Source: a virus (taxonomy: Duplodnaviria > Caudoviricetes). From it: a stretch of DNA of 52,455 nt. The stretch is taken from positions 1-52,455 of IMG/VR virus record IMGVR_UViG_3300001533_001980, one strand, 5' to 3'. The stretch's first letter is position 1; every line of letters starts with the position of its first letter. The translations under genes were made by a program, and so were the position numbers. Positions 17,494 to 43,861 of this stretch are shown here, one piece after another. The notes under the pieces were generated by a model that did not search any database, was not told the origin of the DNA, and saw nothing but the letters and a program-made list of their open reading frames with translations.

Positions 17494-17605
17494 ACGAATT
17501 TTTCAAGCATTTAGCATCCTCTACCGTGTATAATGCGGCATGAGGGAAATATGATTTTTGCTTTTTGCCGCCAATCTCGCTTTCGGAATATATCTACGTT
17601 TTATT

Positions 17606-19379: not shown

Positions 19380-19508
19380 ATGAATAAGCACGCACAAGCA
19401 TTAGGCAGGCTGGCAAAGGGGAAGCCGAAGACTTTGACGAAAGCTGAAATCGACAGGAGAACCAAGCAGCTTGCCGAATCTCGCAAGAAGAGATGGTCCA
19501 AGAAATGA
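19380..19508 (+). CDS. 42-aa basic peptide coupled to tnpB
   Basis: MNKHAQALGRLAKGKPKTLTKAEIDRRTKQLAESRKKRWSKK; its stop overlaps the tnpB ATG (ATGA). Confidence 0.6.
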   Translation: MNKHAQALGRLAKGKPKTLTKAEIDRRTKQLAESRKKRWSKK

Positions 19509-20560
19509 TTGTCCGAACACTCAAACTCAAGCTGACGAAATCCCAGGAGGTCACTCTTGATGGCTGGCTTTGGAATCTTACTGGCGTATGGAATTTTGCG
19601 ATTCGCAAGATAGAGTTGGATGCTCGTGACAAGGTTTACCATTCACAGAATTACCTTCGGAATCTACTCTCTAATCACTCCAGTCGGTTAGGTATACCCT
19701 CTCACACATTGCAGGGCATGCTTTCACAGGCGTATCTGGCGTGGCAAAGATGTTTCCAAAAGAAAGCCAAGAAGCCAAGGCTCAAGGGAAACCGAAATAA
19801 ACTGAATTCCATTCCCTTCCCTGATCCATTACGACCACCCAAGGACAACAGGATTGCCATTCCCGGACTTGGCAAGGTTAGATGCTACAAGCAAGACTTG
19901 CCGGAAGTCAGAATCAAGTGCGGCAGAATAGTAAAGCGGGCTTCGGGTTGGTATTTCTGTCTCTGGATTGATACGGTGCATTCATTCCTCGTTCAAGATA
20001 CTGATAAAGCCGTTGGGATTGATCCAGGTTTCGATACCCTGCTTACCCTGTCCGACGGAACAAAGATAGAGAATCCCCGTGAGTTACGTAAGGGAGCGGC
20101 AAGGCTTGCTCAAGCCCAACGAGAACATGACAAGAAGTTGACAGCAAGGTTGCTTGATCGGCAAGCAAACAGAAGGCGTGACAGAAATCACAAAATCTCA
20201 AGGAAACTGGTCGAAGAAAACAAGACTATTTACTACAGCGATGACAACTTCAAAGGAATGGCAAGGAGATTCGGAAAGTCGGTTACGGAAGCAGGGTTGA
20301 ACCAACTGATTGCTATGATGAACTACAAGGGCACTGCAAGCGGTAGAGAAGTTATTCCAGTCAATTCATTTAGAACCACCATGACTTGCTCGGCTTGTGG
20401 GGCCTTAAGTGGCCCTACGGGATCGAGCGGGCTTGCGGTAAGGAATTGGGAATGTTCTGCTTGTGGGGCAGTTCACGACAGGGATATCAACTCTGCCGTG
20501 ACAGTTCTTAATACTGGGCTGGGAATCAGCCACGAGAGGAGATTAAGCAATGCAGCCTAA
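19505..20560 (+). CDS. tnpB: TnpB RNA-guided nuclease family, atypical RuvC-II
   Basis: GIDPG, TTMTCSACG/CSACG zinc ribbon, HDRDINSA; IYYSDD occupies the position of I..EDL. Confidence 0.92.
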   Translation: MIVRTLKLKLTKSQEVTLDGWLWNLTGVWNFAIRKIELDARDKVYHSQNYLRNLLSNHSSRLGIPSHTLQGMLSQAYLAWQRCFQKKAKKPRLKGNRNKLNSIPFPDPLRPPKDNRIAIPGLGKVRCYKQDLPEVRIKCGRIVKRASGWYFCLWIDTVHSFLVQDTDKAVGIDPGFDTLLTLSDGTKIENPRELRKGAARLAQAQREHDKKLTARLLDRQANRRRDRNHKISRKLVEENKTIYYSDDNFKGMARRFGKSVTEAGLNQLIAMMNYKGTASGREVIPVNSFRTTMTCSACGALSGPTGSSGLAVRNWECSACGAVHDRDINSAVTVLNTGLGISHERRLSNAA

Positions 20561-23041: not shown

Positions 23042-23701
23042 ATGATTGTCATATGTTCACAGCAAGCGTTAAATCCAGCAGGAGTTGCTCGGGTATGCCG
23101 TGAAAATCCCAGCGAAGAAGTTTATGCGCTACCCTGGGTGACGAATTCGAGTGAGTTAGATGAAAACTTCAAGGCTAACAGGACAAGTCCGAATCGGATG
23201 CTGCCGTGTGTCCCAAACAAGGAACACGCGGAAGGGGAAAGTCTGAATTTCTATGACCGCCTTGAAGACGATGCTTTCGGAACTATGGCGGATGCCTTGG
23301 CCCACGGAGCACTGGTTCTCAATGAGATAATGAAGCCTTCGTGCGAGAGCGCATTCTACGGAAGGGTGTTATCTCCGGGGTGGGTTCCTAACTCTGTCGC
23401 CATTATGAACAGCACGACGGCGGATCGTCTCATCCCATGTGAGCCCTTATCCGCTAGGCTATACGCCATGACGACGGTGCCAGTTATGGTGAAATGTACG
23501 AGTGATTTCAAAGAATCGACGGGATGCTCGGTCGAAGAAATTCCAGTTTTGTTGGCAACAGATTTCATTCCGCGCATCGGGGCTTTTATGCAGTTCTACA
23601 AGTTGTTTTCGGGAAAGGACTGTGTTTTTTCCGCCCCCATCGAGGACTTTTCTGGTCATTTACCCCTCCGGTGGAGGTATAATCGGGCATACAAGGTGTG
23701 A
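23042..23701 (+). CDS. Hypothetical protein abutting dnaE
   Basis: ORF ends 1 nt before the dnaE start; its own start is uncertain. Confidence 0.55.
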   Translation: MIVICSQQALNPAGVARVCRENPSEEVYALPWVTNSSELDENFKANRTSPNRMLPCVPNKEHAEGESLNFYDRLEDDAFGTMADALAHGALVLNEIMKPSCESAFYGRVLSPGWVPNSVAIMNSTTADRLIPCEPLSARLYAMTTVPVMVKCTSDFKESTGCSVEEIPVLLATDFIPRIGAFMQFYKLFSGKDCVFSAPIEDFSGHLPLRWRYNRAYKV

Positions 23702-23702
23702 A

Positions 23703-25334
23703 ATGCTAGAAGACTTCTACGATAAGTATGACGTTCCCATTGGGGATAGGATTCCATTGGAGAAAAATATCCTCCTCGTGGTTCCGTCCCCCAAGTACGA
23801 CATATCGGAAGCGGTGAATGGACTGGGAGTATCTCGCTATGAGGTTGCCGTTACGTGGCCCAAAGACTCGATTGACATGCTCGCCGAAATTTGTGCGATG
23901 AAACCCAAGTTCGTTATCCAGTGTGGGCGCGGAATCACTCGCAAATTCCCCGCTGCCGAGACGGATGCGGAATTTAAGTGCTTTCGAGATAGGGCAATAG
24001 CCGCGACCGCTGATTCATTTGTCGGGCTTCACCACCATGACGAATTCAGCATTCGTGATGGGCTGGGGACGGTGAAGAGTCTGGTGGAATTGCTAAAAAA
24101 ACAGCGTCGATCTTTCTGTTGCGTGTCGAATCACGGGACGGTTGGCGGGTGGGTTCGCCAATATAGAGCGTGCAAGAGCGCGGGAGTGAAGCCAATTTTT
24201 GCCATGGAGGCGTATGTCTCCTCGTACCGGGGAGACGATGCCGAGCGTAAGAAAAAACATCGCAAGGCAAACCATCTTCTCTTGATTGCCAGGACGAGAG
24301 AGGGGTTCGACAACATCATTCGCATTCACAATGACGCGCAACTCAATGGGTTCTATTACAGTCCTCGTGTAGACCGAAAAGCAATTCGCAAGTGGGGCAA
24401 GGGCATATGTGCGACTTCGGCGTGTATGAAAGGCGAATTGCCCGAACTTCTCATGGAGAATCAATACCATCGCGCTCGCCGTCTGTATGAATTTTACGCT
24501 AAGTGTTTTGACCAGTTCTACATTGAGGTTCAGATTATCGAATGCGAGATGCAACGGGAGGTCAATCGAAGGCTTGTCAAGTTCGCACAGGACGTAGGGG
24601 CACCTTTGGTGATTGGTTGCGACTCCCATTACCTTGAGCCAGAACACGATTCTACCCACAACATTCTCATGTGTATTCGTCAGGGCAAGACTGTTATGGA
24701 GCAGAAGGAGCGTGACGATATTTGGGAATTCGACGTTGGAAACCTCTACTATCGAAATGCAGAGCAAGTTCGCCGTGGATTCTACAAGCCCTTCAAGGAG
24801 AAGGGGGCGGACTCAGAATCTCCTGCATTTTGCGACGATGTATTCACGGATGAAGTGTTCGAGTCCGCTATGGCGAATACTCGACTTATTGCCGTGGATT
24901 CCGAGATTATTGAGCTGGATTCTACCATTCGGCTACCTTGTCTGTATCCTGACGGGCGCAGTATTTTGCGCAATAAGGTCAACGATGGCTTCAGACGCAG
25001 GGGGCTCGATAATGGGTCGTCATATCTGGCTCAAGATGGTAAAAAAGTGAAGATTCCAGCTCAAGCATATATAGACAGACTGTGTATGGAGTTCGATGTC
25101 ATAACCAAGTTAGGATGGACGGACTATTTCCTGATCGTTGAAAAGATTGTCTCTGACGCCAAGGCAAAATACGGAGAATGGGTTGTTGGGATGGGGAGAG
25201 GAAGTGCAGCCGGTTCGGTGGTGTGTTATTGCCTTGGGATTACAGATGTAGATCCGCTCGTACATGGTCTTCTTTTCGAGCGATTTCTCTCGGCAGACAG
25301 AGTTGGAATTTCCGCTTGCTCTTTTGAGGTGTGA
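23703..25334 (+). CDS. dnaE: DNA polymerase III alpha, N-terminal part (PHP + start of palm)
   Basis: LHHHDEFSIRDG, SACMKGE, DSHY, GRGSAAGS, LLFERFL, then stop. Confidence 0.92.
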   Translation: MLEDFYDKYDVPIGDRIPLEKNILLVVPSPKYDISEAVNGLGVSRYEVAVTWPKDSIDMLAEICAMKPKFVIQCGRGITRKFPAAETDAEFKCFRDRAIAATADSFVGLHHHDEFSIRDGLGTVKSLVELLKKQRRSFCCVSNHGTVGGWVRQYRACKSAGVKPIFAMEAYVSSYRGDDAERKKKHRKANHLLLIARTREGFDNIIRIHNDAQLNGFYYSPRVDRKAIRKWGKGICATSACMKGELPELLMENQYHRARRLYEFYAKCFDQFYIEVQIIECEMQREVNRRLVKFAQDVGAPLVIGCDSHYLEPEHDSTHNILMCIRQGKTVMEQKERDDIWEFDVGNLYYRNAEQVRRGFYKPFKEKGADSESPAFCDDVFTDEVFESAMANTRLIAVDSEIIELDSTIRLPCLYPDGRSILRNKVNDGFRRRGLDNGSSYLAQDGKKVKIPAQAYIDRLCMEFDVITKLGWTDYFLIVEKIVSDAKAKYGEWVVGMGRGSAAGSVVCYCLGITDVDPLVHGLLFERFLSADRVGISACSFEV

Positions 25335-25338
25335 ACGC

Positions 25339-27627
25339 ATGACATCTATTGAAAAACTGATAGAAATATGTGATGCGAGGTTGGTTGAATTAGGGTTATC
25401 ATCCGAGTATCGCGTTAGAATGGAAGACGAGGTTCTCCACCTTGAGAGATGGCATGATTACGGCAATCGAGACATGGCGGCTGAGCTTTTGAGCAAGATG
25501 GGCAATTCCCCCGTTCCGTCAAATAAGTCTGGCTCCTTGATATTGTTTCTTATGGGGATTTCGTCGGTTGATCCAATAGAACATGGCATCCCGATGTCCA
25601 GTGCGACAATCAGGAGCGGAGACGCTCCCGACATAGATAATGATTTTGACCCACGATATAGAGAGGACATTAAGCGTCATATCGTGGAGTCATTCGGGGA
25701 AGAGCGTGTCTGCTCGATTGGATCGTATCAAACCTATCGAACAAGTTCCGTGCTGACCGATGTAGCCCGAACGCTCGGTCTGGATATTCATGAGATTCGG
25801 GCTATAACTAAAAAGATTCAACCATTGCAGTCTTTCGAGGACGAAGAGGGGCAAGAGCAGAAGGTTGATGATATGAGTTTTGATGATTTATGCGAGCATT
25901 ATCCTGACCTGAAGGCATACCTTGAAAAGTATCCAGCGGTACGGAGGCACGCAGAAGTTCTCCGCAATCAAGTCAAGAACATGGGGACGCACGCAGGGGG
26001 CGTAATTATATCAGACCTCAATTTGCAAGGGCGAATACCTGTTCTATATGATAAGCCATCCAGTGAATCCAGAAAGATCATTTCGGCATGGGCTGAGGCA
26101 CCCGGCAAGAGCGAAGATTTGAGCGAGGTAGGACTTGTAAAATTCGATATTTTAGGGCTGAACACCCTTTCTGTTATATCGGACTGCATGGCACTGATTG
26201 AGAAAACGAGGGGCAAGAAAATAACAAGGGAGCAAGTTCCGATTGACGACAGGGAATCAATTCGCACTTGCTCTCGTGGTGACTTGGTGGGAATCTTTCA
26301 GCTTGAAAATCCAGCGACATTACCGGTGGCAAGGGAGGTGGCCCTTGAGACTCTTGGCGACGTTTCCGCTTTGACCTCTCTCATTCGCCCCGGACCAAGA
26401 GACATGGGGATGGATATGGAGTATGCTCGACGCAAGCATGGTCATCCCTACGTTATGCCTGATTTTCTAAAGCGCATGCTGGCAGACACATACGGAACAG
26501 TGGTTTTTCAGGAGCAGGCGATGTCTGTCGCACAGAAGATAGCGGGTCTTTCCAAGCCAGAATCTTACGGATTTGTTAAAGCAATCGCTAAGAAGCTGAA
26601 AGACAAAATGGCATCATTTCATCAGAAATTCAGAGATGGTTCCAAGCCACTACGAGATTCTGGCGAGCTGACTATGGAAGATGTTGATGCGATTTACAAT
26701 TTGCTGGAGACTTTTGCAGGATATGCGTTCAACCGGGCACATGCCGTCTCATATTCAGCTATTAGTACGATTCAGTTATGGTTAAAATACCATTATTTTC
26801 CCGAATTCTTGTGTGCCCTCATCAATAATACCGATCCTGGCAAGAAGAAACATGGTTCTTCCAATATCATGGTGGATTACATAAATTATTCTCGTCGAAG
26901 AGGCGTTGCTGTGCTCGGACCCCATATAAGTAAGAGCAAGGGGAGTTTCACGCTAGACAATGGAGATATTCGTTTTTCGCTGGGGCACATCAAGTACGTG
27001 GCGACTATGGCAAATGTAATCGAGTCGTTTCAGCCCATCGTCAGCATGGAGGATTTTCACGAAAGGGTGAAAGTAACGAGCGTAGGAAAGACGGGGCGCA
27101 AAACAAGTCGGAGACCTAACAAGCGGCAAGTGGAGAGTCTTATTGCGGCTGGTGCTTTTGACCATTTAGGGACTCGCAATGATGTAGCAGCGAAATACTA
27201 TGAATTAAGAAAGGGCAAGGAGGAAGATCCCCCGGAGAGAACTGATGATGAATGGGTAAATATGGAAAAAGAGGTAATTGGGGTATGCCTGTCAAAAGAA
27301 CCACTTTACAAACAGTATGAAGAACTCATTCGCAAGAATAAGTGGACGGCGATTCATGGGATAAGTGACAAGAAGAAAGTCCGGGTGTTCGGCAAGGTTG
27401 AAAATATTAGTCCTCATACGTCCAAGGCTGGCAACTCAATGTATATAGTAGTCCTTGGTGATGGTTTGGACGTTATGAAATTTTTCGTATTTGCTGGCGG
27501 CATGGAGTTCTTCCGTGAGAATGTTAAGATTGGGAATATCGGAGCGTTTCCACTGGATAGGTTTGACGACTCGGATACCCGTTTTTTTGATGATCGGGGT
27601 AATGTTGAAATTCTCAAAATGAAGTAG
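25339..27627 (+). CDS. dnaE: DNA polymerase III alpha, C-terminal part (catalytic Asps, fingers, HhH, OB)
   Basis: PDIDNDFD, HAGGV, KFDILGL, IRPGP, FQEQ, YAFNRAHA; GAGGTG RBS. Confidence 0.93.
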   Translation: MTSIEKLIEICDARLVELGLSSEYRVRMEDEVLHLERWHDYGNRDMAAELLSKMGNSPVPSNKSGSLILFLMGISSVDPIEHGIPMSSATIRSGDAPDIDNDFDPRYREDIKRHIVESFGEERVCSIGSYQTYRTSSVLTDVARTLGLDIHEIRAITKKIQPLQSFEDEEGQEQKVDDMSFDDLCEHYPDLKAYLEKYPAVRRHAEVLRNQVKNMGTHAGGVIISDLNLQGRIPVLYDKPSSESRKIISAWAEAPGKSEDLSEVGLVKFDILGLNTLSVISDCMALIEKTRGKKITREQVPIDDRESIRTCSRGDLVGIFQLENPATLPVAREVALETLGDVSALTSLIRPGPRDMGMDMEYARRKHGHPYVMPDFLKRMLADTYGTVVFQEQAMSVAQKIAGLSKPESYGFVKAIAKKLKDKMASFHQKFRDGSKPLRDSGELTMEDVDAIYNLLETFAGYAFNRAHAVSYSAISTIQLWLKYHYFPEFLCALINNTDPGKKKHGSSNIMVDYINYSRRRGVAVLGPHISKSKGSFTLDNGDIRFSLGHIKYVATMANVIESFQPIVSMEDFHERVKVTSVGKTGRKTSRRPNKRQVESLIAAGAFDHLGTRNDVAAKYYELRKGKEEDPPERTDDEWVNMEKEVIGVCLSKEPLYKQYEELIRKNKWTAIHGISDKKKVRVFGKVENISPHTSKAGNSMYIVVLGDGLDVMKFFVFAGGMEFFRENVKIGNIGAFPLDRFDDSDTRFFDDRGNVEILKMK

Positions 27628-31705: not shown

Positions 31706-32912
31706 ACGAATTTTTCCTCAAAAGATAGTCGACTATAGTGATGTATGGTGATATCTTGGTATTATGAAATTGAGCGAATATGCCCGACACAAGACAATTG
31801 TGATAGATGATGCGAGCAAAAAATGACAATCACCCGTACATCCAGATTTGCTTTGAAGTTTTCCAATTCTGGAAAGCGAAAGCAACTGCTTGATTTCGTC
31901 AATGAATATGTCAAGGTGGTCAATGCCATCATTGAACTGCTTTGGCAGGGCAAGGTTTTCAAGGGATCATTCGTATCAAAAGATATTCTATCACAAGTTG
32001 ACACTTGGCTTTCAGCAAGAGCATTGCAGGCTTGCGGCAAACAGGCTTTACAAGCGGTCAAATCACAACGAAAGCGCAGGAAGAAAACAATGCCTGTTGT
32101 CAGGTCTCAAACGGTTGAACTTGACCAGCGTTTTGTTTCCTTCATTGATGCCGATTCATCCTTCGATGAGTTTGTGAAGTTTTCGTCACTTGGGAACAAA
32201 CTAATTGTCGTTTGTCCGATCAAACACCACAGGCACTACAACGACCTTGTCTCTCGTGGTTTCAAGCGATCTAAGTCAACAAGGCTTACTGTCGTTAATG
32301 GCAGCCTGTATCTCGATGTCATACTCGAAAGAGAAGCCATACCCATTAAGTCAGGCAAAACCATCGGGATTGACATGGGTATCAAGAAACTGATGGTTGA
32401 TTCAGATGGCAATGAGTACGGCAAGGACATTGAAAGACTGCTGGACAAAGCTAACAGAAAGCAGTTCAAGTCTAGGGCGTTTGACAGGGCTTTAGCCGAA
32501 AGAGATGCCTATATCAATGCTGCCGTCAAGCAATTACCTCTTGCCAATGTCGTCATTGAAGATTTGGCAGGCTTGGACAAAAACACTAAGAAAAGGCTTA
32601 GAAAGCCATTCAGAAAGAAAGTCCATCGCTGGACTTATGCTAATCTCATAAAGTCGGTGGAAAGATATACAGAAGTAGTTGGAGTCCAATGTCTGCATGT
32701 CAACCCGGCTTATACATCGCAGACCTGTAGTAAATGCGGGTTTATTCACAAGTCAAACCGAGATGCTGAGTTATTCGAGTGTGGGAATTGTGGCTACACA
32801 GCGGATGCAGACTTTAATGCGTCTTTGAATATCTTGAATCGGTCACTGGCCCAGCAAAATATGGTCGCTGGAAGTACGAAAGCAAACATTCAACTATGAA
32901 GTTTGCAACTAT
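31706..32912 (+). mobile_element. IS607-family element with internally deleted tnpA
   Basis: Remnant MKLSEYARHK..KK* at 31764-31826 overlaps the tnpB ATG; TAT is shared at both junctions. Confidence 0.75.
31823..32899 (+). CDS. tnpB: TnpB nuclease with intact RuvC triad
   Basis: GIDMG, VIEDL, AYTSQTCSKCG, CGNCG, DADFNASLNI. Confidence 0.95.
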   Translation: MTITRTSRFALKFSNSGKRKQLLDFVNEYVKVVNAIIELLWQGKVFKGSFVSKDILSQVDTWLSARALQACGKQALQAVKSQRKRRKKTMPVVRSQTVELDQRFVSFIDADSSFDEFVKFSSLGNKLIVVCPIKHHRHYNDLVSRGFKRSKSTRLTVVNGSLYLDVILEREAIPIKSGKTIGIDMGIKKLMVDSDGNEYGKDIERLLDKANRKQFKSRAFDRALAERDAYINAAVKQLPLANVVIEDLAGLDKNTKKRLRKPFRKKVHRWTYANLIKSVERYTEVVGVQCLHVNPAYTSQTCSKCGFIHKSNRDAELFECGNCGYTADADFNASLNILNRSLAQQNMVAGSTKANIQL

Positions 32913-33171: not shown

Positions 33172-33543
33172 ATGAAAATCAGAATGAACCACACCTCAAT
33201 AGGCGATGGATACCTGACCACGGATCATCCATCCAGCAGCTATAATATCCCTGTATTTGTGGACGATGACGGGAATGCGTATGGACCCGGTGACAAATTT
33301 CCACGATTCAATTGCAATGTCGGGTATCTTCATCAAGCGGAGGAGGTGGAATACACAGCCGAAGAAATTCAGTGGGTGCATGACTACATCGTGCGCACTA
33401 ATTTAAGCGATTGCGAGACGAGAACAGGAGCCAGAATGGATAGCCGTTGGCGGGTTTGGCTATTCGGTGAGACATGGAAAACAGCAGGGCAACTTGCCGA
33501 GATTGAGCGGATCAATGGCAAAAAGATGATTCGCAACCGGTAA
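33172..33543 (+). CDS. Hypothetical phage protein
   Basis: LTTDHPSSSYNIPVFVD...YGPGD. Confidence 0.65.
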   Translation: MKIRMNHTSIGDGYLTTDHPSSSYNIPVFVDDDGNAYGPGDKFPRFNCNVGYLHQAEEVEYTAEEIQWVHDYIVRTNLSDCETRTGARMDSRWRVWLFGETWKTAGQLAEIERINGKKMIRNR

Positions 33544-33552
33544 CTGATTTTT

Positions 33553-33581
33553 TCAGAATCCATTGCGACTTGTGCAATGAA
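33553..33581 (+). promoter_or_regulatory. TCAGAATC-N11-GTGCAATGAA motif, copy 3, upstream of the cassette array
   Basis: Exact motif. Confidence 0.8.
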
Positions 33582-33695
33582 GGGTTGTGAAGATCGAACC
33601 CCGTCGGCAGGAGGAAGCATGAAGACAGCAACAGAGTTTTGGGAGGCGCAGCAGTTAGCTAAAGACGAGGTTGTTGGCAATTCTGGAGGTGGACA

Positions 33696-33959
33696 ATGAA
33701 CTACACAAAGACCGTATTGATGCCGATTGACGTTCCTGACTGCGGGTACTGTCGGGAGCCGGGAACCCCGTATCGCATCTGCGAGCACTTCGACAACGAG
33801 GGCGGGCACCCTACGTGCGAGCTAAACTTGGGGTCGCTAAAGTATGCCGATGACGGTGGAGTGCGGAAACCGGTCGGTGTGCTTCACTTGCTGGCGCATC
33901 CTTCACCCTTCGCGGTGAAGCGAAGCGGAACTCCCGATAGCGGTGGAAGGAGTTGTTAG
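33696..33959 (+). CDS. Cys-rich hypothetical protein ending inside an attC-like site
   Basis: GGAGGTGG RBS; CGYC...C...C. Confidence 0.55.
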   Translation: MNYTKTVLMPIDVPDCGYCREPGTPYRICEHFDNEGGHPTCELNLGSLKYADDGGVRKPVGVLHLLAHPSPFAVKRSGTPDSGGRSC

Positions 33960-33961
33960 GC
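33899..33961 (+). repeat. attC-like site 0 (R'' missing)
   Basis: ccttcaccc...ggtggaagg imperfect palindrome ending in core GTTAGGC, directly followed by ATG. Confidence 0.65.
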
Positions 33962-34186
33962 ATGAATTGGCGACCGAGACAGACTGCGCCTACAGACGGC
34001 ACCCCATTCCTTGCTGCGTGGTTGAGTAACGTCGTCATCGCGTACCGCAATACCGACGTTGACGGGTGGCAGGAGTGGCCCGACGGCGACTTCGAGGATG
34101 TGCCCGGTGAGTGGACTCACTGGATGCCACTTCCTTCTCTGCCGAACACCCAAGCTGACTTTTGCGAAAGGAGCGAAGCGGAATGA
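33962..34186 (+). CDS. DUF551-like protein (cassette A)
   Basis: W.P..TAP.DGT...THWMPLP. Confidence 0.8.
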   Translation: MNWRPRQTAPTDGTPFLAAWLSNVVIAYRNTDVDGWQEWPDGDFEDVPGEWTHWMPLPSLPNTQADFCERSEAE

Positions 34187-34212
34187 GCATAAAATCAAGC
34201 GACTTGTTCGCC
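34141..34212 (+). repeat. attC-like site 1
   Basis: GCCGAAC...gctgactttt/aaaatcaagc...GTTCGCC, 72 bp. Confidence 0.7.
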
Positions 34213-34662
34213 GTTGGCGACGAGGTACAGATCAAGGTCGGTGCGTCTGCGTGGATGAAGGAGCATAACTACTGGATTGCCGATTGGCCGGAGTCTATTG
34301 ACGGTATGGCGGGAGTTATTGCGAACGACTACACGCAGTACGCCGGAAACGACTGCCACTACGAGGTTGTGATTGAAGGCGTGACCGGGTGCGGTGTGCA
34401 TCCGCAATGGTTGACGGCGAACGCGGCTGATTTGATCGTGAAGACAGGTGAATCGAATTGTTGTCACGAAGACTTCATCTGCTGTGGCCGCGAGATGACT
34501 CCTACAGGCTTTCAATTTGGCAACGGTTGGGAGTGTGACGTTTGCGGACACCGTGAGTTCGACGTAGCATCGTTCAAGATGGGCGGCAACTACGAAGAGT
34601 ATTTGAGGACGAGCGACAATGCCTGTGCTACCTTCCCCGTTCGTGTTCAGGATCAAGGGTAA
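34183..34662 (+). CDS. In-frame fusion of two small cassettes (KOW/SH3-like + zinc ribbon)
   Basis: VGDEVQIK domain, then a shortened attC-like site (34416-34467) read in frame, then CCG..CDVCG. Confidence 0.55.
   Translation: MSIKSSDLFAVGDEVQIKVGASAWMKEHNYWIADWPESIDGMAGVIANDYTQYAGNDCHYEVVIEGVTGCGVHPQWLTANAADLIVKTGESNCCHEDFICCGREMTPTGFQFGNGWECDVCGHREFDVASFKMGGNYEEYLRTSDNACATFPVRVQDQG
34600..34624 (+). repeat. 25-bp direct repeat, left copy
   Basis: tatttgaggacgagcgacaatgcct, identical to 39212-39236. Confidence 0.97.
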
Positions 34663-34693
34663 CCTCGCTTTGCTCGGTCGCTAGAGAATTCGA

Positions 34694-34828
34694 ACCACGG
34701 ATTACACTGAGCACACGGATTAATGTGTAAACATCTATCCTGAAACACCTTGCGAATCATTTTGTCACTGGCTACAAGCAGTGCCCATAACCCCATCCCG
34801 AATCCGTGTATTCCGAGTAATCCGTGGT
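34694..34828. repeat. MITE-like element with imperfect ~28-bp terminal inverted repeats
   Basis: accacggattacactgagcacacggatt pairs with aatccgtgtattccgagtaatccgtggt. Confidence 0.65.
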
Positions 34829-34901
34829 CAGAAAATCCCCCATCCACAACAGTTTTCTCTTGACGGTGCATCCCCGTCACGCGGTTACAGGTTCCCATAC
34901 A

Positions 34902-35057
34902 TTACTGCGCATCATTGCACGGGGTGGTGGAGACCTCCAAGTCGGCGGCAATGGCCTTCATCGGGGCGCCCCTTGCCTTCCGCCAGGACCGCAGCGCGTG
35001 CCCGAGCTTGGCTCGCGCACAGTCGCGGTTTTCGTTCTGTCGTTGTTCGCCTCGCAT
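34902..35057 (-). pseudogene. Truncated XRE-family HTH regulator
   Basis: LGHALRSWRKARGAPMKAIAADLEVS, then the homology is lost. Confidence 0.55.
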
Positions 35058-35073
35058 GGCTTCATGCTCCCCA

Positions 35074-38000
35074 TCAAAAGAAAGGCGCGCATTCGCGCTT
35101 GCCGTCAAACGCCTCCGGCCAGCCGCCGTGCGCCTCAATGGTCTGGTCTATGGCGTTCATCAGCCGGATCGTCTCGTGCAAGGCGACGACGATTTTCTGG
35201 TAGTGCTGGATGTCGGCGTAGTCGAGGGTGCGGCCCTTTCGGTCTTTGAGCCACTTTTCGCAGACCTGGTAGCCGCCGACGCGGAAGTTCCAGACGTCTG
35301 CCGGAATGCCGCCGAAATATTGGGTGGCGTTGATGTGGACGCGGCCGGTGGGGTCGGGGGACGCGGACGGTAATGAGGAGAATGCAGGCGGGACGCCCGC
35401 ACCACTTTCTTCCGACGGCAGGCAAGATGCCTGCACCACGTTAAAGATGACTCGGTCAACTTCGTTGGTGCCTTTTTCGGGGAAGTCGGTGATGAAGTGA
35501 TCGAGATTGGGGGATTGCAGGAGATGCAGGGCGACGAGGTCGACGCCATGTGCGGCGAGGCGGAAGAAGAGGTCGTGGTCGGCGGTGAGGGGCAGGCGCG
35601 GGAAGTCGATTTTGAGGAATTCGGCGTAACGCTCGCGATAGGTCGGCGAATGGAGGATGGCGTAGGCGTAGTGGAAGATGTCTTCGGGCGTGAACCGGGC
35701 GGGTGCTGACGCTGACGCGGCGGGCGCAGCGACAAACGGGATGCCAAGCCGCTTTTCGAGATCGGCTATGAACTTTGGATTCAGGTTCGGACGTCGCCCG
35801 CCGGAGATATCAAGCTCGTCGCCCTCGGGGTGGAGGTAGAGGGGGAAAGCGGTGTTGATGTCGTAGGCGGCAACGGACTTATGAGCCGCCAGCGCGTTTG
35901 TGCAAAGAAGCCCGAACGGTTCCTCGGTCTTGCGGGTGGTTAGTATCGCCAGATTGTCGCCGTCGGGATGGAGGTAGAGGGGGAAAGCGGAGGTTATCTC
36001 ACGCGTGCGATTTGACACGCTACAGCATTCGGAAATAGCAGACGAACAGAAGACATGGACATAGTCACCGGCAATCACTTGGCGGCAGGCCAGTAGCGAA
36101 AGGTTGTCGATGGTCATGTGTCGCATGACCGGGCGTGCCGGCGTGCCGATGAATCCGCGCGATTGGCCGCTGTACCAGGTGTGGCGAAGGTCGAACGGGC
36201 GATACAAGATCGGCTGGAAACAGGTGTCTTCGCGGTTTTTGGCCACATCCGCCTTGGCTTTGGCGACTTGCCAGTCGCGGCTGTCTTTGTGCAGATCATA
36301 GCGGGTGCGGATCGCGTTTTCGTCGAGTGTGCGGAAATCCTCCACGACTCGCCGGATGCCTTCTTTCGTGAAATGGATGGATAAACGATCACGCTCGGTT
36401 TTGACGGCATTACCGGAAACCGTGAAGACCTCGCGCAAGGACCAGCCGCGCTCGTATTCTTCCCGGCTGCGGTCGTCCTTGGGCACGAAGAAGTGATAGG
36501 GCTCGTTCGGGGCGAGTTCGGTCCAGGGGGTGGTTTCGGCGTCGTTTTCCCAGAGCCAGTGGTATTTGCCGCCGACGAGCCGGTCGTCTTCGTAGAGGGC
36601 GCGGCGGCCCCAGAGGTCGGCGTGGTATACGCGGGCCAAGGTAGACGCGGCGTCACGCCGCGTTGGAACGAGGCGGGACGCCGCGTCTACTTTGTTTTTC
36701 ACCGCCAGGAGGATGGATACGCCGACGGTGATGTCGAAGACGTTTTCGTCCTTGCCGCCGTCGGGAGTCCTTTCCTTCTTCTTGGAACTGCCATGCAGGT
36801 TGAGGACATAGATTTCGTCGAAGGATTCGAGCAGGCTTTGGCGCATGCGGCGATGGGTGATGCCGTCGAGGTAGCTGTTGTTGGTGATGAAGCCGACGAT
36901 GCCGTGGCCGGTCTGGTCAATGCGCCATTGGGCGAAGCGGATGAACTTGATGTAGTCGTCGTCGAGGTTGAGCTTCTTCTCGTTGAGGTCGCGTTTGTAG
37001 TCGGCCAGCAGCCCGAGAATCCAGGGGTTGCGGTTCATCTGGCCGAAGTTGGAATAGGGCGGATTGCCCATGACGACCATGATCTCGCGGTCGCGCTTGA
37101 TTTCGGCGGCGGCGTTGGCTTCGCGCGAAATGAACTGGCCGAGCAGCATCTCGGAGCGCTTGGCGGCTTCTTCGAGGGTGTTGGTGAGGTAGATGCCGAG
37201 CCGCTGGTCGCTGCCGAAGGTGTAGCCGGTGGTTTCGAGTTGCATGCTGAGCTTGAGGTGGGCGACGGCATAGGGGGCCATGAGCAGTTCGAAGCCGAAC
37301 AGGCGCGGCAGGAGATGGCGGCCGACATAGCCGTCCCTCACGCCGCGCTGACGCTGGAACGCCTCCTGGATACGCTCGATGGCGAAGTACAGGAAGGTGC
37401 CCGTGCCGGTGGCCGGGTCGAGGATGAGGGTGTTTTCGTCGGCCAGTCCCCTGGGACGGTCGAGGCGGGTCTTGAGCAGCCAGTCGAGCGAGCGGACGAT
37501 GTAGCGGACGACGGGTTCGGGGGTGTAGAAGACGCCGCGCACGTCGCGCAGGGCCGGATCGTAGGCGGCCAGGAAGGTTTCGTAGAAGTGGACGACGGGG
37601 TCTTCGCGGCCTTTGCACTTGCCGAAATCGCGCAGGATTTCGCCCATGTCGGCGTGCGCGAGCAGGGCGACCATGTCGTTGACCGCCCAGGCGATGGTGT
37701 CGGGCATGCGCGCACCAGCGATCTGCTCGAAGAGCAGGCGCAGGAAGGGATTGGTGCGCGGCAGGTACTGGGCGGCGGAGAGGCGGGAGAAGGGCTTGCT
37801 GGGGGCCTGTGCGCGGGCGGCGAAGAGGCCGTAGGCCAGCGTCTGGGCGAACATGTCGGCGAAGGCGTGCTCGTCGAGATCGGGAATCAGGGTCTCGCGA
37901 AAGGCGGTCAGCCATTCGTTCAGCCAGACATCGGGAGTGCCATAGCCGGGCATGGTCTCGTGGACGGCCCGCGTGTCGGCGGACTTCTGCCGCTCCTTCT

Positions 38001-38559
38001 CGTCCCGCAGCGTGGCCAGCAGGAGGTCGCGCAGCATGCGCGTGAACCCGGCCATGTGGCGGGCCAGATCACGGGCCGTGGAGACAGTCAGGGCGGGCTG
38101 GGTATAGAACGCCGTGAGGAAGGCGGTGAGTTGCGCCGCGCCGTCGGGCACGGGCTTGAGACGCCCCTTGGCATCGAAATCGGCCACGCGCAGGGTCAGC
38201 CGCTTCTCGCCGGCGGCATACCAGCGGAATTCAAGGTAATCGGTCAGCACCCAGTTCGGCAGGGTGGCATAGCGCAGGAACTGCCCACCGTTCGGCCCCT
38301 TGCCGCGCTCCATCTCATCGAGGTTGACGCCGACATCCTTGGTCTCGATATGCCCGACCGGCACACCATTGCGCGTGATGTTGAAATCCGGGGCGCCGCA
38401 GGCGATGCGGCGGGGCTCGTTGGTGGCGACGATGCCGGGGTCAACGGCTTCGAGCAACGCCTTCAGCGCCGGGCGGTGCGTATGCTCGGTGGCGTCACCG
38501 CGCTCGATATTCGCGCGCAGGTCGCGTATGTAGTCGCCGAATGTGCTATGGTTGGGCAT
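35074..38559 (-). CDS. Type IIG / ISP-like fused restriction-modification enzyme (N6-adenine MTase)
   Basis: PDF..GHIETK nuclease, FYTPEPVV, LDPATGTGTF, GNPPY, TRD, GGYQVCEKWLKDRK C-terminus. Real start is likely MPNH at 38559. Confidence 0.92.
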   Translation of the reverse strand: MPNHSTFGDYIRDLRANIERGDATEHTHRPALKALLEAVDPGIVATNEPRRIACGAPDFNITRNGVPVGHIETKDVGVNLDEMERGKGPNGGQFLRYATLPNWVLTDYLEFRWYAAGEKRLTLRVADFDAKGRLKPVPDGAAQLTAFLTAFYTQPALTVSTARDLARHMAGFTRMLRDLLLATLRDEKERQKSADTRAVHETMPGYGTPDVWLNEWLTAFRETLIPDLDEHAFADMFAQTLAYGLFAARAQAPSKPFSRLSAAQYLPRTNPFLRLLFEQIAGARMPDTIAWAVNDMVALLAHADMGEILRDFGKCKGREDPVVHFYETFLAAYDPALRDVRGVFYTPEPVVRYIVRSLDWLLKTRLDRPRGLADENTLILDPATGTGTFLYFAIERIQEAFQRQRGVRDGYVGRHLLPRLFGFELLMAPYAVAHLKLSMQLETTGYTFGSDQRLGIYLTNTLEEAAKRSEMLLGQFISREANAAAEIKRDREIMVVMGNPPYSNFGQMNRNPWILGLLADYKRDLNEKKLNLDDDYIKFIRFAQWRIDQTGHGIVGFITNNSYLDGITHRRMRQSLLESFDEIYVLNLHGSSKKKERTPDGGKDENVFDITVGVSILLAVKNKVDAASRLVPTRRDAASTLARVYHADLWGRRALYEDDRLVGGKYHWLWENDAETTPWTELAPNEPYHFFVPKDDRSREEYERGWSLREVFTVSGNAVKTERDRLSIHFTKEGIRRVVEDFRTLDENAIRTRYDLHKDSRDWQVAKAKADVAKNREDTCFQPILYRPFDLRHTWYSGQSRGFIGTPARPVMRHMTIDNLSLLACRQVIAGDYVHVFCSSAISECCSVSNRTREITSAFPLYLHPDGDNLAILTTRKTEEPFGLLCTNALAAHKSVAAYDINTAFPLYLHPEGDELDISGGRRPNLNPKFIADLEKRLGIPFVAAPAASASAPARFTPEDIFHYAYAILHSPTYRERYAEFLKIDFPRLPLTADHDLFFRLAAHGVDLVALHLLQSPNLDHFITDFPEKGTNEVDRVIFNVVQASCLPSEESGAGVPPAFSSLPSASPDPTGRVHINATQYFGGIPADVWNFRVGGYQVCEKWLKDRKGRTLDYADIQHYQKIVVALHETIRLMNAIDQTIEAHGGWPEAFDGKRECAPFF
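36641..36690. repeat. REP-like palindrome inserted in frame in the R-M gene
   Basis: 14-bp perfect inverted repeat gtagacgcggcgtc/gacgccgcgtctac. Confidence 0.8.
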
Positions 38560-38707
38560 AAGGTGACAAGCGACCTTCCAGTTCCGAGATATTCTCCGAT
38601 ACATGTGCCAACAAATCGTCAGCCGTCGTCCATTCGGGGTCTTCCAGATCGGCTCTGGCATAGGCCAGCCAATCGCGGGGATTCCAGGAGTCAGTCTTTC
38701 TCGGCAA
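38546..38707 (-). pseudogene. Internally deleted HEPN-domain gene
   Basis: LPRKTDSWNPRDWLAYARADLE joined to DPEW...; start overlaps the MNT stop; only 53 aa. Confidence 0.65.
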
Positions 38708-39050
38708 GACACACCCCCTCACGCAGGATGGTTTCGAAAAAAGGATCGCGAATGTGGCGTTTCTCGGCCAAACGTTCCAGAGATATCGGCACCTGGTTCA
38801 AGGCAGGCTTGTTGCGGATGCGTCCGATGGCCCGGCGCAGGGTGCGTGCCGTCGACTGTTGCGTCTCGATCCCGTTCGTGACGATACACAGGTCGATATC
38901 GCTTTCCGGCGCGTTCTCGCCACGCGAATACGATCCGAAAAGCAAAACGCGCTCGACATGCAGGACCTCATCGAATGCCTGAATGCACGCCTGCAATCCA
39001 TCCGCATGCGCGTGCAACGCTTCCGCCATTCGTTCTGATCGAACTTTCAT
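38691..39050 (-). CDS. Minimal nucleotidyltransferase (MNT) antitoxin
   Basis: LFGSYSRG....SDIDLCIV and DPFFETILREG. Confidence 0.9.
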   Translation of the reverse strand: MKVRSERMAEALHAHADGLQACIQAFDEVLHVERVLLFGSYSRGENAPESDIDLCIVTNGIETQQSTARTLRRAIGRIRNKPALNQVPISLERLAEKRHIRDPFFETILREGVCLAEKD

Positions 39051-39211
39051 CGTTTTCTCTAATTCACGAGGCACTTCGCGTCGGCAAGACAACACAGCTC
39101 CGCCTTGTGCTAATCTCGCCAACCTAAGCCATCCCTAAATCGATGGCAAGGTTTGTTTGCTGACAGTTTTTTTGCAGACCTGCAGAGTATCTTGCAAAAC
39201 CCACTGGTAAC

Positions 39212-39236
39212 TATTTGAGGACGAGCGACAATGCCT
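39212..39236 (+). repeat. 25-bp direct repeat, right copy
   Basis: Identical to 34600-34624. Confidence 0.97.
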
Positions 39237-39324
39237 AATGCACGGTTTACGAGCGTACCGCTATTGGCGTGTCATCCGATGTGCGTCAGATACAACGACT
39301 GGTTAGAAGGCAGAGGTACCAACC

Positions 39325-39890
39325 TATGAAATTGGGCGACAGAATAAAGCGATACGAGGCGGTAAGCCACTACACAGCAACCGGCAGAACTCCGCTGATG
39401 ATTCGGGTGGACGGCAGGGCTTTTCACACGTTCACGCGAAGCATGGACAGGCCGTTTGACCAGAATCTGATCGACGCGATGGTGAATGCGGCCCGCGATG
39501 TTGCTGCCGAAATGCAGGGCTTCAAAGCGGCTTATATTCAATCCGATGAGGTGACGTTCTGCGTAACCGACTACGACAGGATTGAGAGCCAAGGCTGGTT
39601 CGACTACGACTTGATGAAAGTGGTGTCAATTTCAGCAGCACTGATGGCTGTGAGGTTTATCCGGCACCTGGGCACCGCAAAGACCCCTGTGTTTGATGGG
39701 CGGGCTTTTTCGGTGCCAGGCGACCGACCTGACGCCGCAGCAGAAGAACGGTACGTTCTTGATTCAGGGCGAGGACGGCATTGCAGAGCGACACGACATT
39801 CTGCCGACCTACGACGCTGTAAACGCTGGAATTGGCACCCTGTTTGAGATGCCTTCTAACACGGCATTAACCAACAAGGAGAATATATGA
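39325..39890 (+). pseudogene. tRNA(His) guanylyltransferase Thg1-like, internally deleted and frameshifted (cassette D)
   Basis: LGDRIKRYE, RVDGRAFHTFT, QSDEV, FDGRAF; the C-terminal DL...KNG.F continues in another frame. Confidence 0.85.
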
Positions 39891-39941
39891 GCCTTGTTGT
39901 CTTCTGGTTTGCCTACGCAGACCCGTCGGGGGAGAATTCTT

Positions 39942-39970
39942 TCAGAATCTTAACTCTCTCGTGCAATGAA
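39942..39970 (+). promoter_or_regulatory. TCAGAATC-N11-GTGCAATGAA motif, copy 4
   Basis: Exact motif. Confidence 0.8.
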
Positions 39971-40011
39971 GAGGGAGAGGACACGATAGACGGCAAAACT
40001 AAGGAGCACTG

Positions 40012-40212
40012 ATGAAAGTAATGCGAGACTGGGCGGACAATGAAGAGCTTATGGTTGCGGTTACTGAGGCAATGAGTACCGGCGACATTGCCGATGAATT
40101 CGGGGTGGAGGTAGACGCCCGAAACGAGGAAGGCTCTTACGGCGAGCGGGGCTACATCGAACTGAAGTACGACGGGCGCAGGTTTCGTCTGGCGTTGGAA
40201 GAATTGCTTTAG
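40012..40212 (+). CDS. Small acidic hypothetical protein
   Basis: AAGGAG RBS. Confidence 0.65.
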   Translation: MKVMRDWADNEELMVAVTEAMSTGDIADEFGVEVDARNEEGSYGERGYIELKYDGRRFRLALEELL

Positions 40213-40239
40213 AAAGCAAGAAAGAAGCCGAGCAGGATA

Positions 40240-40596
40240 ATGAGAATGTGGATGGTCAATCCTGTGTGGCTCTGTATGCAGCACCTTTCTGGTGAGCATA
40301 ATGAGATCCACAAACACAGGCACAATTTCGAGAAGGGGCATTCGATTGCGGGGCGTATCGCAATAAACGCCTGTGAGCCGATATCCATGAAAACGCGACA
40401 TGATGAGCTGGAAGCAGAGATACAGCGTAGGGCCAGGGTTGCCGGACGGAAGCCCCCGCATAGCCCGTATGAGATTCCTGACCTGTCTTATCTGTCTGAC
40501 GAACATCGGCAGCTTGACGACGATGTTGGGCTCCACGAGAACAATAAGCCCTGCGTTGAAGGTATGCGAAATCTGTCCTTCTCACGCCCCCTTTGA
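40240..40596 (+). CDS. Pyrimidine-dimer DNA glycosylase (DenV/Pyr_excise-like)
   Basis: MRMWMVNP..LC.QHL.GEH.EIH...RHDEL..E. Confidence 0.8.
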   Translation: MRMWMVNPVWLCMQHLSGEHNEIHKHRHNFEKGHSIAGRIAINACEPISMKTRHDELEAEIQRRARVAGRKPPHSPYEIPDLSYLSDEHRQLDDDVGLHENNKPCVEGMRNLSFSRPL

Positions 40597-42397: not shown

Positions 42398-43861
42398 ATG
42401 CTGAAATCAATTGAACTTTGGGATTTTGAATCGCACGAACACACCTTGCTCGATGGACTATCTGATGGTTTGAATGTCGTCTGCGGACCATCAAATTCCG
42501 GGAAAACCAGTGTGGTCAGAGCCTTGCGGCTTGTTGCCTGCAATGATTTTGATCCAGCTTCCGTGAGGATAGGAGCGAAAAATTGCCGAGTCAGGGTTAC
42601 GACTGACAAGGGGGTCGTGCAGGTCACACGAGGAAAGGATAACCTCTGGGAAGTATGGAATGGCGACGGGAGTGGACCGGCGACTCATACGCTCAGGAGT
42701 CCCGGAGTCGCCGTCGTGCCCCAGGCTTCGGAAGTTATCGGCATAGGGACGGTGAAGCTTGGGGATGTGAATGTCCCCGTCAACATCATGGAGCAGCTCG
42801 AAACTCACTTTATGCTGGCTGGAATTGGGGATGATAAGGCGACTGGATCAGTTCGCGCTCAGGTGATTGATGAAATTTCAGGGCTTTCTGGAATAGAGAG
42901 TGTCATCAAGGCTGTTAGTCTGGATATCCATCGTGCTGGTCGAGAAATCAAGCAGTCCGAGATGCAAATGGGCGAACTCAATGAGCACGTTCACGACGAA
43001 GCCGAAATAGACAGGGAAAACAGGATACTGGATAAAGCCAGTAAGCACCTTGACGAGCAGAAGAAGGCTCTTGAAGTTATAGATGTCGCCAACGACTTTT
43101 TGAGACAGTGCAACTTGCTGGACGAGCAGGTGTCCGATTTGAAGAGGCGATTGGCGGTTATACCTAACGCTAAACTTGCGGAGCAGCATATCGGAAATGC
43201 GATTCGTGCCAACGAAAAAGTGCGTCAGGCTGAAGACTTGCTAGAAAAGTTCAAGTTTGCGAACGGTGAGATTGAAAGAATAGCCAAGTCGATTGCTCGT
43301 ATTCCAGACCATGCAGGGGCTACCGCCCATCTTGATAGGGCTCGGGAGTTCGCCAGCAAGTTGAGAGTGGCAATGGAAATTCTCGACGAGGTGGTCCAGA
43401 TTGACGAAGAACTGGACGTTAAGGGGAAACGGCTGAAGGGATTGTCGGCAGTATCTACCGTATCGAAACACCTTGATGCGGCAGAGCAAGCCGTTAGCAA
43501 ATTGAAAATTGCCAAATCTATACTGGATGGGTGGCAATCGGCAGACGATGAGGTTAGGCTGATTGAGGGTAGGCTGGAAAAATTGTCCGCAGTGTCTGCC
43601 ACGCCAACGTATATCGAGAAAGCAGAAGTGGCTGTCAGAAGGTTGATGGTTGCCGAATCCATACTGGATAAATGGCGATCAGCGGATGAGGAAGTCAGGC
43701 TTCTTGGACGCAGGATTAAGGACAATGGTGAATTACTAGACAGGGCAATTTCAGAACAAAATGAGATACTGAAGTCCATCAAGGTTTGTCCGTTGAATCC
43801 GGCACATCCTGTCTCCGAGGATTGTTTGAAGGGTCTTGAAATAACTTCCCCGTTTCAATAG
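42398..43861 (+). CDS. sbcC: SbcC/Rad50-like ATPase, N-terminal half
   Basis: FESH, GPSNSGKTS, Q-loop EQ, coiled coil, terminal CPL; no signature motif or Walker B. Confidence 0.85.
   Translation: MLKSIELWDFESHEHTLLDGLSDGLNVVCGPSNSGKTSVVRALRLVACNDFDPASVRIGAKNCRVRVTTDKGVVQVTRGKDNLWEVWNGDGSGPATHTLRSPGVAVVPQASEVIGIGTVKLGDVNVPVNIMEQLETHFMLAGIGDDKATGSVRAQVIDEISGLSGIESVIKAVSLDIHRAGREIKQSEMQMGELNEHVHDEAEIDRENRILDKASKHLDEQKKALEVIDVANDFLRQCNLLDEQVSDLKRRLAVIPNAKLAEQHIGNAIRANEKVRQAEDLLEKFKFANGEIERIAKSIARIPDHAGATAHLDRAREFASKLRVAMEILDEVVQIDEELDVKGKRLKGLSAVSTVSKHLDAAEQAVSKLKIAKSILDGWQSADDEVRLIEGRLEKLSAVSATPTYIEKAEVAVRRLMVAESILDKWRSADEEVRLLGRRIKDNGELLDRAISEQNEILKSIKVCPLNPAHPVSEDCLKGLEITSPFQ

Follow-up and report, generated by a model that had tools for sequence, protein, structure and literature searches.

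A 4.6-kb bacterial-like segment with a Type IIG restriction-methyltransferase gene between 25-bp direct repeats in a large phage genome

The insert and its two joints

We analyzed the viral record IMGVR_UViG_3300001533_001980 (Duplodnaviria; Caudoviricetes), a linear stretch of 52,455 bp that constitutes the complete IMG/VR record and is called the window here. With a CheckV completeness of 16%, the window represents only part of a much larger phage. Within the phage replication region lies an insert of 4,587 bp of foreign, bacterial-like DNA, which carries a restriction-modification (RM) gene and has one copy of the same 25-bp phage sequence at each end. The original prediction had described a GC-richer, opposite-strand segment of this length between perfect 25-bp direct repeats, and the measurements agreed with it. 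The insert's GC content is 0.59 to 0.66 per kb versus 0.44 to 0.53 (about 0.49) in the remaining window, and the genes of the insert are on the minus strand, whereas the plus strand carries nearly all other long open reading frames (ORFs) of the window. Profile searches, including those against Pfam, placed genes of a phage replication and recombination module in both flanks of the insert. The features at the site are the following.

34162..34662, plus strand: phage target ORF, 166 aa from a TTG start (database form, 159 aa)
34600..34624, plus strand: left copy of the 25-bp repeat, corresponding to the final 8 sense codons (YLRTSDNA) of the phage ORF, which continues into the insert
34625..39211, genes on the minus strand: foreign insert, 4,587 bp
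39212..39236, plus strand: right copy of the 25-bp repeat, followed by the native TAA stop (39236-39238) and phage intergenic sequence
39326..39847, plus strand: Thg1-like phage gene downstream of the site, kept intact together with its upstream region by the duplication

The window contains exactly two copies of the 25-mer (TATTTGAGGACGAGCGACAATGCCT), at 34600-34624 and 39212-39236, each on the plus strand, and allowing up to 3 mismatches brought up no third one. Two matches appeared in none of 100 dinucleotide-preserving shuffles. The repeat is exactly 25 bp long, as the bases bordering the two copies differ (gaagag and ggtaac on the left, gtgcta and aatgca on the right). This 25-mer is native phage sequence, namely, the C terminus of the phage target ORF. 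When the insert was deleted in silico, the empty form of the ORF encoded 154 aa and ended in ...GGNYEEYLRTSDNA-stop (EEYLRTSDNA). P0013, the sole database homologue of the C-terminal module of the ORF, ends in ...GGNYEEYLAMSADK-stop, and its stop falls 6 residues after EEYL, the same as in the reconstructed empty ORF. In the filled form, the insertion adds 12 residues (CATFPVRVQDQG) to the protein. The target ORF (34162-34662) is a fusion of two modules, neither of which matched any Pfam family; the N-terminal module (approximately 85 residues) stands alone in 11 database proteins of 94 to 153 aa, and the C-terminal module, which is Cys rich, was found in P0013.

A misjoining of phage and bacterial contigs via the common 25-mer would fit the origin of the record as a metagenome-assembled viral contig, the GC jump at both joints, and the presence of related bacterial sequence in samples of the same study. 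Nine public runs contain part of the stretch, and four of them (X1 to X4) were compared over 33600-40200 using Logan contigs, which are built from 31-mers, i.e., words longer than the 25-bp repeat. In both X1 and X2, the left junction was crossed by a contig covering 33600-36050 with 0 differences and the right junction by a contig covering 38194-40200 with 4 differences, thereby indicating that the reads contain words joining the phage flank, the 25-mer, and the insert. The figures for X1 and X2 were near identical, perhaps because a single data set had been filed twice or because they are the source of the window, and the two runs were counted as one sample. The mean word depth was 6.6 and 9.1 in the junction contigs versus 4.4 to 5.3 in the insert-internal contigs, with no gross coverage discontinuity, and the depths of flank and insert were alike. 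In addition, the target ORF with its insert-encoded tail is recorded from four contigs in the protein database (P0001). A further protein, P0134, from a contig of 3,249 bp, is identical to P0001 at 158 of 159 residues, with the sole change inside the insert-encoded tail; this contig represents the filled left junction with one substitution and therefore provides independent backing for that junction. A chimera would, in addition, require the bacterial piece to carry the 25-mer at each end, but the related bacterial sequence in X4 lacks it. With junction-spanning contigs at hand, the assembly chimera against which the original prediction had cautioned is very improbable.

Gene content of the insert and its bacterial relatives

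Read along the minus strand, from the right joint to the left, the insert contains the following features.

39211-39051, minus strand: segment of 161 bp upstream of the minimal nucleotidyltransferase (MNT) gene
38691..39050, minus strand: MNT gene, 119 aa from the ATG at 39050 (NTP_transf_2, E 5.8e-10; Polbeta)
38546..38689, minus strand: stub of 47 codons that follows the MNT stop directly and occupies the HEPN partner position, cut short at the start of the RM gene
35074..38559, minus strand: Type IIG restriction-methyltransferase gene, 1,161 aa from the ATG at 38559, frame intact
34902..35057, minus strand: truncated helix-turn-helix fragment (weak match to HTH_31, E 0.064, profile positions 2-28 of 64)
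34689..34833: palindromic repeat resembling a miniature inverted-repeat transposable element (MITE), in which 33-nt arms with 82% complementarity enclose a 79-nt centre (DNA fold z -2.52)
Last 64 bp: terminal stretch of the insert up to the left joint

The RM protein matched the Pfam families N6_Mtase, Eco57I, and Type_ISP_C (E 6.6e-87) and the PADLOC family REase_MTase_IIG (E 7e-267), and the R-M gene of the original prediction was thus recovered by both profile sets. The nearest solved structure was 7lo5 (E 2.4e-46), followed by LlaBIII and LlaGI over the methylase part only. From an alignment of 10 homologues, the row of L009, which represented a wrong ORF, was left out, and the PD..E-x-K, motif I, and NPPY stretches were conserved relative to the remaining 9. 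Like the DrdV/MmeI-like Type IIG/IIL enzymes (7lo5), the protein is a single chain that has a PD-(D/E)XK-type motif at the N terminus, an N6-adenine methylase of the gamma class (motif I, NPPY), and a specificity domain at the C terminus; its alignment with 7lo5 spans 325-797 only. The helicase motor found in true Type ISP enzymes is missing from it. These comparisons identify the protein as a single-chain Type IIG fusion with predicted restriction and modification functions.

The RM protein differs from DrdV/MmeI-like enzymes by three in-frame insertions, which are specific to the window when compared with the homologues. The insertion at aa 628-635 corresponds to a 58-bp palindrome (36637-36694) that places 8 extra residues in frame, the one at aa 845-892 is a 48-residue internal duplication, and the one at aa 1043-1065 is a short GC-rich repeat. 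In the specificity domain, a 138-bp internal tandem duplication at 35813-36000 adds 48 residues and repeats the FPLYLHP motif. The X3 and X4 relatives skip 152 bp at this duplication, indicating that the internal duplication of the RM gene is variable.

The MNT named in the original prediction was likewise found, through its NTP_transf_2 match. Its match to the NCBIfam model MntA_antitoxin (E 1.4e-8) reached 34.6 bits, under the curated cutoff of 60 bits. The arrangement of an MNT gene followed by a short ORF in the partner position is the same as in the MntA-HepT (MNT-HEPN) type VII toxin-antitoxin system; however, the partner here is the 47-codon stub. A "dead HEPN" had been predicted at this place, of which the short stub in the partner position stood, but the family assignment did not: the stub showed no Pfam match to a HEPN family even at E values up to 10, and its translation contained no R-x(4-6)-H motif. 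The name stems from a likeness of the first residues to HEPN N termini, and a dead HEPN is a reasonable guess rather than a finding. As judged from these comparisons, the MNT appears to be an orphan and not part of an MNT-HEPN pair. The predicted truncated helix-turn-helix gene may correspond to the fragment listed above, for which the HTH_31 match was weak. Two positions in the MNT gene (38959 T>G and 38969 C>T) deviate from the window in the contigs of X1, X2, and X3 that span the junction, and here either the population is polymorphic or a co-occurring relative is.

The 15 scanned ORF translations of the insert, including 10 alternative-frame ORFs, yielded no transposase or integrase family, and the two ends showed no terminal inverted repeats, with an end-to-end alignment score of 7 versus a shuffle mean of 7.35 (at least 7 in 356 of 500 shuffles). 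Both results are as the original prediction had stated. Among the scanned coding-strand ORFs of the window of at least 200 aa, there were two TnpB genes but no DDE, tyrosine, serine, or Cas1 enzyme, and neither an integron integrase nor another such recombinase was found in the scanned ORFs of the window, the visible 52 kb of a genome that is approximately 16% complete.

In the metagenomes, a high-copy stretch surrounds the first palindrome (approximately 34656-34866), where the summed depth at 34722-34788 was approximately 640 in X3 and 424 in X4 versus 5 to 30 nearby. At the second palindrome (36665), the depth was 397 in X3, with approximately 5 in the phage flanks. These high-copy palindromes indicate a bacterial chromosome rich in repeats as the origin of the block. 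Matches to the arms of the first repeat were present in 24 of 301 genomes from the phylum of G001 (L003's genome, a Verrucomicrobia bacterium), compared with 4 of 301 in the phylum of G306, 2 of 301 in that of G307 (one being the unpublished genome G659), and 5 of 301 in that of G310, two of which lie elsewhere on the query. For the second palindrome, the counts were 6 of 186 genomes for the phylum of G001 versus 1 of 186 for the phylum of G310. This enrichment in the phylum of G001 suggests that a Verrucomicrobiota-like bacterium was the likely donor.

The RM family itself is large and bacterial: 593 of 600 candidate stretches were confirmed in the genome collection, and 7,998 of 8,000 scored candidates in the protein database had E values of 1e-50 or lower. 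The best RM relatives were 60% (genome contigs) and 64% (protein database) identical in amino acid sequence, and the actual donor is therefore not in the collections searched. In phage and plasmid collections, short stretches of 67 to 82% identity within the RM gene, plus the Thg1-like gene, were matched and nothing more, and no MNT relative was confirmed in viral contigs. The left 449 bp of the insert were found in 0 of the 5 genomes with the closest RM relatives. Similarly, the MNT gene, the stub, the helix-turn-helix fragment, and the repeat were absent beside the RM homologue at all 80 genome loci and at 8 other loci. The block is a local mosaic rather than a conserved operon. Close relatives of the insert (95 to 99% identity, depth 6 to 22) were present in X3 and X4. 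A donor-like contig in X4 tracks the insert to 39213 and then continues into unrelated sequence, without the 25-mer at its right end; at the right joint, this donor-like locus and the phage have only TA in common.

Entry of the segment into the phage genome

The target duplication, the absence of terminal inverted repeats and of a recombinase, the ragged gene remnants, and the nondescript ends are together best explained by illegitimate recombination. By a modest measure, we favor an illegitimate capture, without a transposase, of DNA that is bacterial and probably verrucomicrobial, in which 25 bp of the target were duplicated, and the foreign segment, the duplication of phage sequence, and the lack of mobility genes agree with the capture of chromosomal DNA that had been proposed originally. 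The captured piece looks like part of a defence island taken up as a random chromosomal chunk, with its truncated helix-turn-helix fragment, HEPN-like stub, and two palindromes. The repeat, the foreign character and content of the insert, its two junctions, and the lack of mobility features are observed, whereas the joining mechanism, with neither an empty site nor the donor locus found, is what we infer, as are the donor lineage and any benefit to the phage.

On the phage map, 25 bp separate the two phage-insert joints. A host fragment may have been ligated or copied between two copies of the phage genome (a concatemer or sister molecules) that were broken 25 bp apart. Alternatively, a replication fork may have switched template to host DNA and returned 25 bp upstream, or a break with overhangs of 25 nt may have been filled by a host fragment. 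The single widely staggered break suggested in the original prediction and a pair of breaks, each on its own phage genome copy, fit the data equally well. The duplication takes in the end of the upstream gene with its stop as well as the region leading into the downstream Thg1-like gene; the upstream ORF is kept almost intact, and so is the lead-in of the downstream gene. Both phage genes thus survived, which explains the viability of the recombinant. Recombination-driven replication, for which T4-type phages provide the basis, is plausible here because the phage has genes for a recombinase of its own and for an SbcC-like nuclease. Likewise, a precise excision of the block via the repeats by RecA-type recombination, which the original prediction had envisaged, is plausible because the recombinase of the phage is UvsX-like.

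Several observations weigh against illegitimate capture or limit it. The donor locus was not recovered, the best RM relatives being those of 64% and 60% identity, and the MNT had only three loci in metagenome contigs, at 37% identity. Microhomology was seen at the right breakpoint only and amounts to 2 bp (chance, 1 in 16); the left donor breakpoint was unseen because the donor locus was not recovered. No empty-site relative was found. The 166-aa target ORF gave 4 pattern matches in viral contigs, none of which was confirmed; P0013 gave 15, of which again none was confirmed; and the empty-form target protein was absent among the predicted database proteins. The Thg1-like gene was found at 5 loci, and the phage with the closest relative (L083, 72%) has only this gene in common with the window and shows no synteny. 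The joint of 34624 to 39237 was absent from the contigs of the four runs, in which rare variants are dropped, and X3 is uninformative on the insertion site, its phage contigs ending at 34581 and restarting at 39339. The support for the right junction may come from a single sample (X1/X2). In addition, the cargo is antisense to the phage genes, and a search for sigma-70-like promoters in 34000-39800 found 0 versus 2.0 expected. The length of the repeat also counts here, since 25 bp falls short of the screen used for the closest class of insertions known in bacteria, which is described below.

Nobusato et al. reportedly described RM genes with "insertion with long target duplication" as early as 2000. 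In the later article by Furuta, Abe, and Kobayashi (2010; PMC2853133), this mode of RM gene insertion is reported for bacteria, without mobility genes, and the repeats are unique in the genome and often lie across a start or stop codon. The screen described there required repeats longer than 30 bp, and the cases ranged from 46-47 bp to about 400 bp, with one 22-bp case left undecided. The threshold is a guard against att repeats and not a mechanistic limit. The phage insertion shares with this class (PMC2853133) an RM block shorter than 20 kb (here 4,587 bp) without mobility genes, an insert carrying both restriction and modification functions (here in one fusion protein), flanking direct repeats that are unique (here in the window), a repeat that overlaps the 3' end of a target gene left intact, and a GC content unlike that of the recipient. 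The enzymes of the first cases cut outside their site, to which the Type IIG enzyme here may be likened. The recipients there were bacterial chromosomes, whereas here it is a phage genome, and an empty-site genome was always at hand in the cases described, whereas none was found here. The insertion thus appears to work like the long-target-duplication class and may be regarded as a variant of that class in a phage rather than a proven member. A limited literature search found no paper on this mode of RM insertion in a phage genome.

Other routes could also leave direct repeats. The segment could be a discrete non-autonomous unit moved in trans by an enzyme cutting with a stagger of about 25 bp, which would make the 25-mer a true target-site duplication. 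Direct repeats of the target sequence are a transposition signature, and the Mycoplasma transposon IS1630, as cited in PMC2853133, makes target duplications of 19 to 26 bp. The homology of the X4 contig stops within 2 bp of the right end of the insert, which would suit such a unit, and random capture fits this stop equally well. In a variant of this route, the Type IIG nuclease itself would make the breaks, as Kobayashi's group speculated for RM units; the first long-duplication cases concerned Type IIS enzymes, which cut outside their site (PMC2853133), and the enzyme here is Type IIG. However, the insert has neither terminal inverted repeats nor a transposase, and the scanned window ORFs supplied no candidate enzyme beyond the two TnpB genes. 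Its ends are nondescript, the left one lying 31 bp outside the MITE-like repeat and the right one 161 bp upstream of the MNT gene, its cargo is an untidy set of gene remnants, and in none of the 80 genome loci does the RM homologue stand beside the MNT, HEPN, helix-turn-helix, and repeat companions. We consider movement in trans unlikely. A related proposal makes the RM gene the mobile agent, in that its distance-cutting nuclease, acting on two copies of the phage genome, would have made the breaks for its own entry with the 25-bp duplication, and the phage copy would be the "vehicle" stage of a selfish RM life cycle. The cycle proposed for such units comprises insertion with direct duplication, amplification or excision via the repeats, and release to new hosts, and PMC2853133 states that there is no experimental evidence for release and subsequent infection of RM units. 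An active role of the RM gene in its own transfer is thus doubtful.

Integrase-mediated insertion typically leaves perfect direct repeats of 15 to 60 bp at the 3' end of a gene, and the perfect repeats at the 3' end of the target ORF fit this pattern. A circle with the 25-mer as its single att core could have entered by site-specific (Campbell) integration with a recombinase acting in trans, as for elements of the cis-mobilisable or XerCD-dependent type, and the repeats would then be attL and attR. The threshold of more than 30 bp in PMC2853133 was chosen for this reason, as shorter repeats can stem from site-specific recombination. Nevertheless, the 25-mer is phage coding sequence at a C terminus whose length is conserved in P0013, it lacks dyad symmetry (best self-complement match, 3 nt), and it is missing from the right end of the donor-like X4 contig. 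The original prediction had allowed for a known att core, but the 25-mer had no other match in IMG/VR viral contigs and, at up to 3 mismatches, none in 401 genomes of the likely donor phylum. With no integrase in the insert or in the scanned window ORFs, integration at an att site is quite improbable. An entry by aberrant cassette recombination at an attC-like site, which had also been suggested, would require an integron-type event, and attC-like sites have been reported in phage genomes (PMC9892861). This part of the prediction did not hold. A scan of the plus strand in 34400-34800 and 39100-39400 found no RYYYAAC or GTTRRRY core motif, and the proposed R''-like GCGACAAT does not match RYYYAAC. 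There was no Rfam match in 33500-40500 and no IntI-like protein among the scanned ORFs, the 43-nt motif that recurs in the phage (see below) is absent from the site, and a 4.6-kb insert with several genes and pseudogenes is unlike a cassette. An integron-type event is therefore hardly credible, and illegitimate capture with a target duplication remains the reading that we favor.

Possible role and phage surroundings

Phage morons usually consist of one gene that has its own promoter and terminator, and they lack a flanking duplication. The insert resembles a moron in being a foreign, compositionally distinct block between two phage genes, with its own orientation and a defence-type gene, but it differs by the 25-bp duplication, the lack of a recognisable promoter, and the several gene remnants. 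If expressed and active, the Type IIG enzyme could protect phage DNA by methylation from a host enzyme with the same specificity, or it could cut unmodified rival DNA. The orphan MNT could neutralise a host HEPN toxin, in the manner of a stolen antitoxin. The antisense position of the block, the lack of a sigma-70-like promoter in the scanned region, and the three unusual insertions in the RM gene argue against a role in the phage, and the insert may equally be a neutral passenger.

Under illegitimate capture, the case would represent a junction-verified pick-up of a bacterial defence block by a virulent-type large phage without mobile-element machinery. It would extend the long-target-duplication mode of RM movement from bacterial chromosomes to a phage genome, and such an extension would matter for the movement of defence genes from host to host. 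Through the 25-bp repeats, the block could be lost precisely, and such a loss should be detectable.

The remaining features of the phage flanks are the following.

Phage flanks: two helicases and a primase, by profile matches
13924-15081: UvsX-like recombinase
23502-25334 and 25264-27627: DNA polymerase (phrog_405), in two overlapping ORFs that represent the N- and C-terminal parts of the profile
42398-43861: SbcC-like exonuclease
19493-20560 and 31823-32899, plus strand: two TnpB-type genes (Cas12f1-like_TNB and OrfB_IS605)

The second TnpB gene (31823-32899) lies 1.7 kb to the left of the insertion site. No TnpA was seen, the flanks of this TnpB gene and the target site had no common word longer than 9 nt, and no guide-like match linked TnpB to the site. 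The two overlapping polymerase ORFs represent a split polymerase or a frameshift. In the Thg1-like gene, the similarity to the L083 relative shifts to another frame after approximately 39667 (39720-39845), which suggests a frameshift or a split gene.

No tRNA or tmRNA was found in the complete window, and an apparent tRNA T-arm stretch proved to belong to the palindromic repeat. A 43-nt intergenic phage motif recurs at 17601, 33091, 33548, 39937, and 41574, directly upstream of plus-strand ORFs. It consists of a TCAGAATC box, a spacer of approximately 14 nt, and then GTGCAATGAAGG, and it is probably a phage promoter plus ribosome-binding-site signal. This motif may have prompted the "attC-like" label of the original prediction. 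At the very start of the contig (1-447) lies a tandem array with a 48-bp period.

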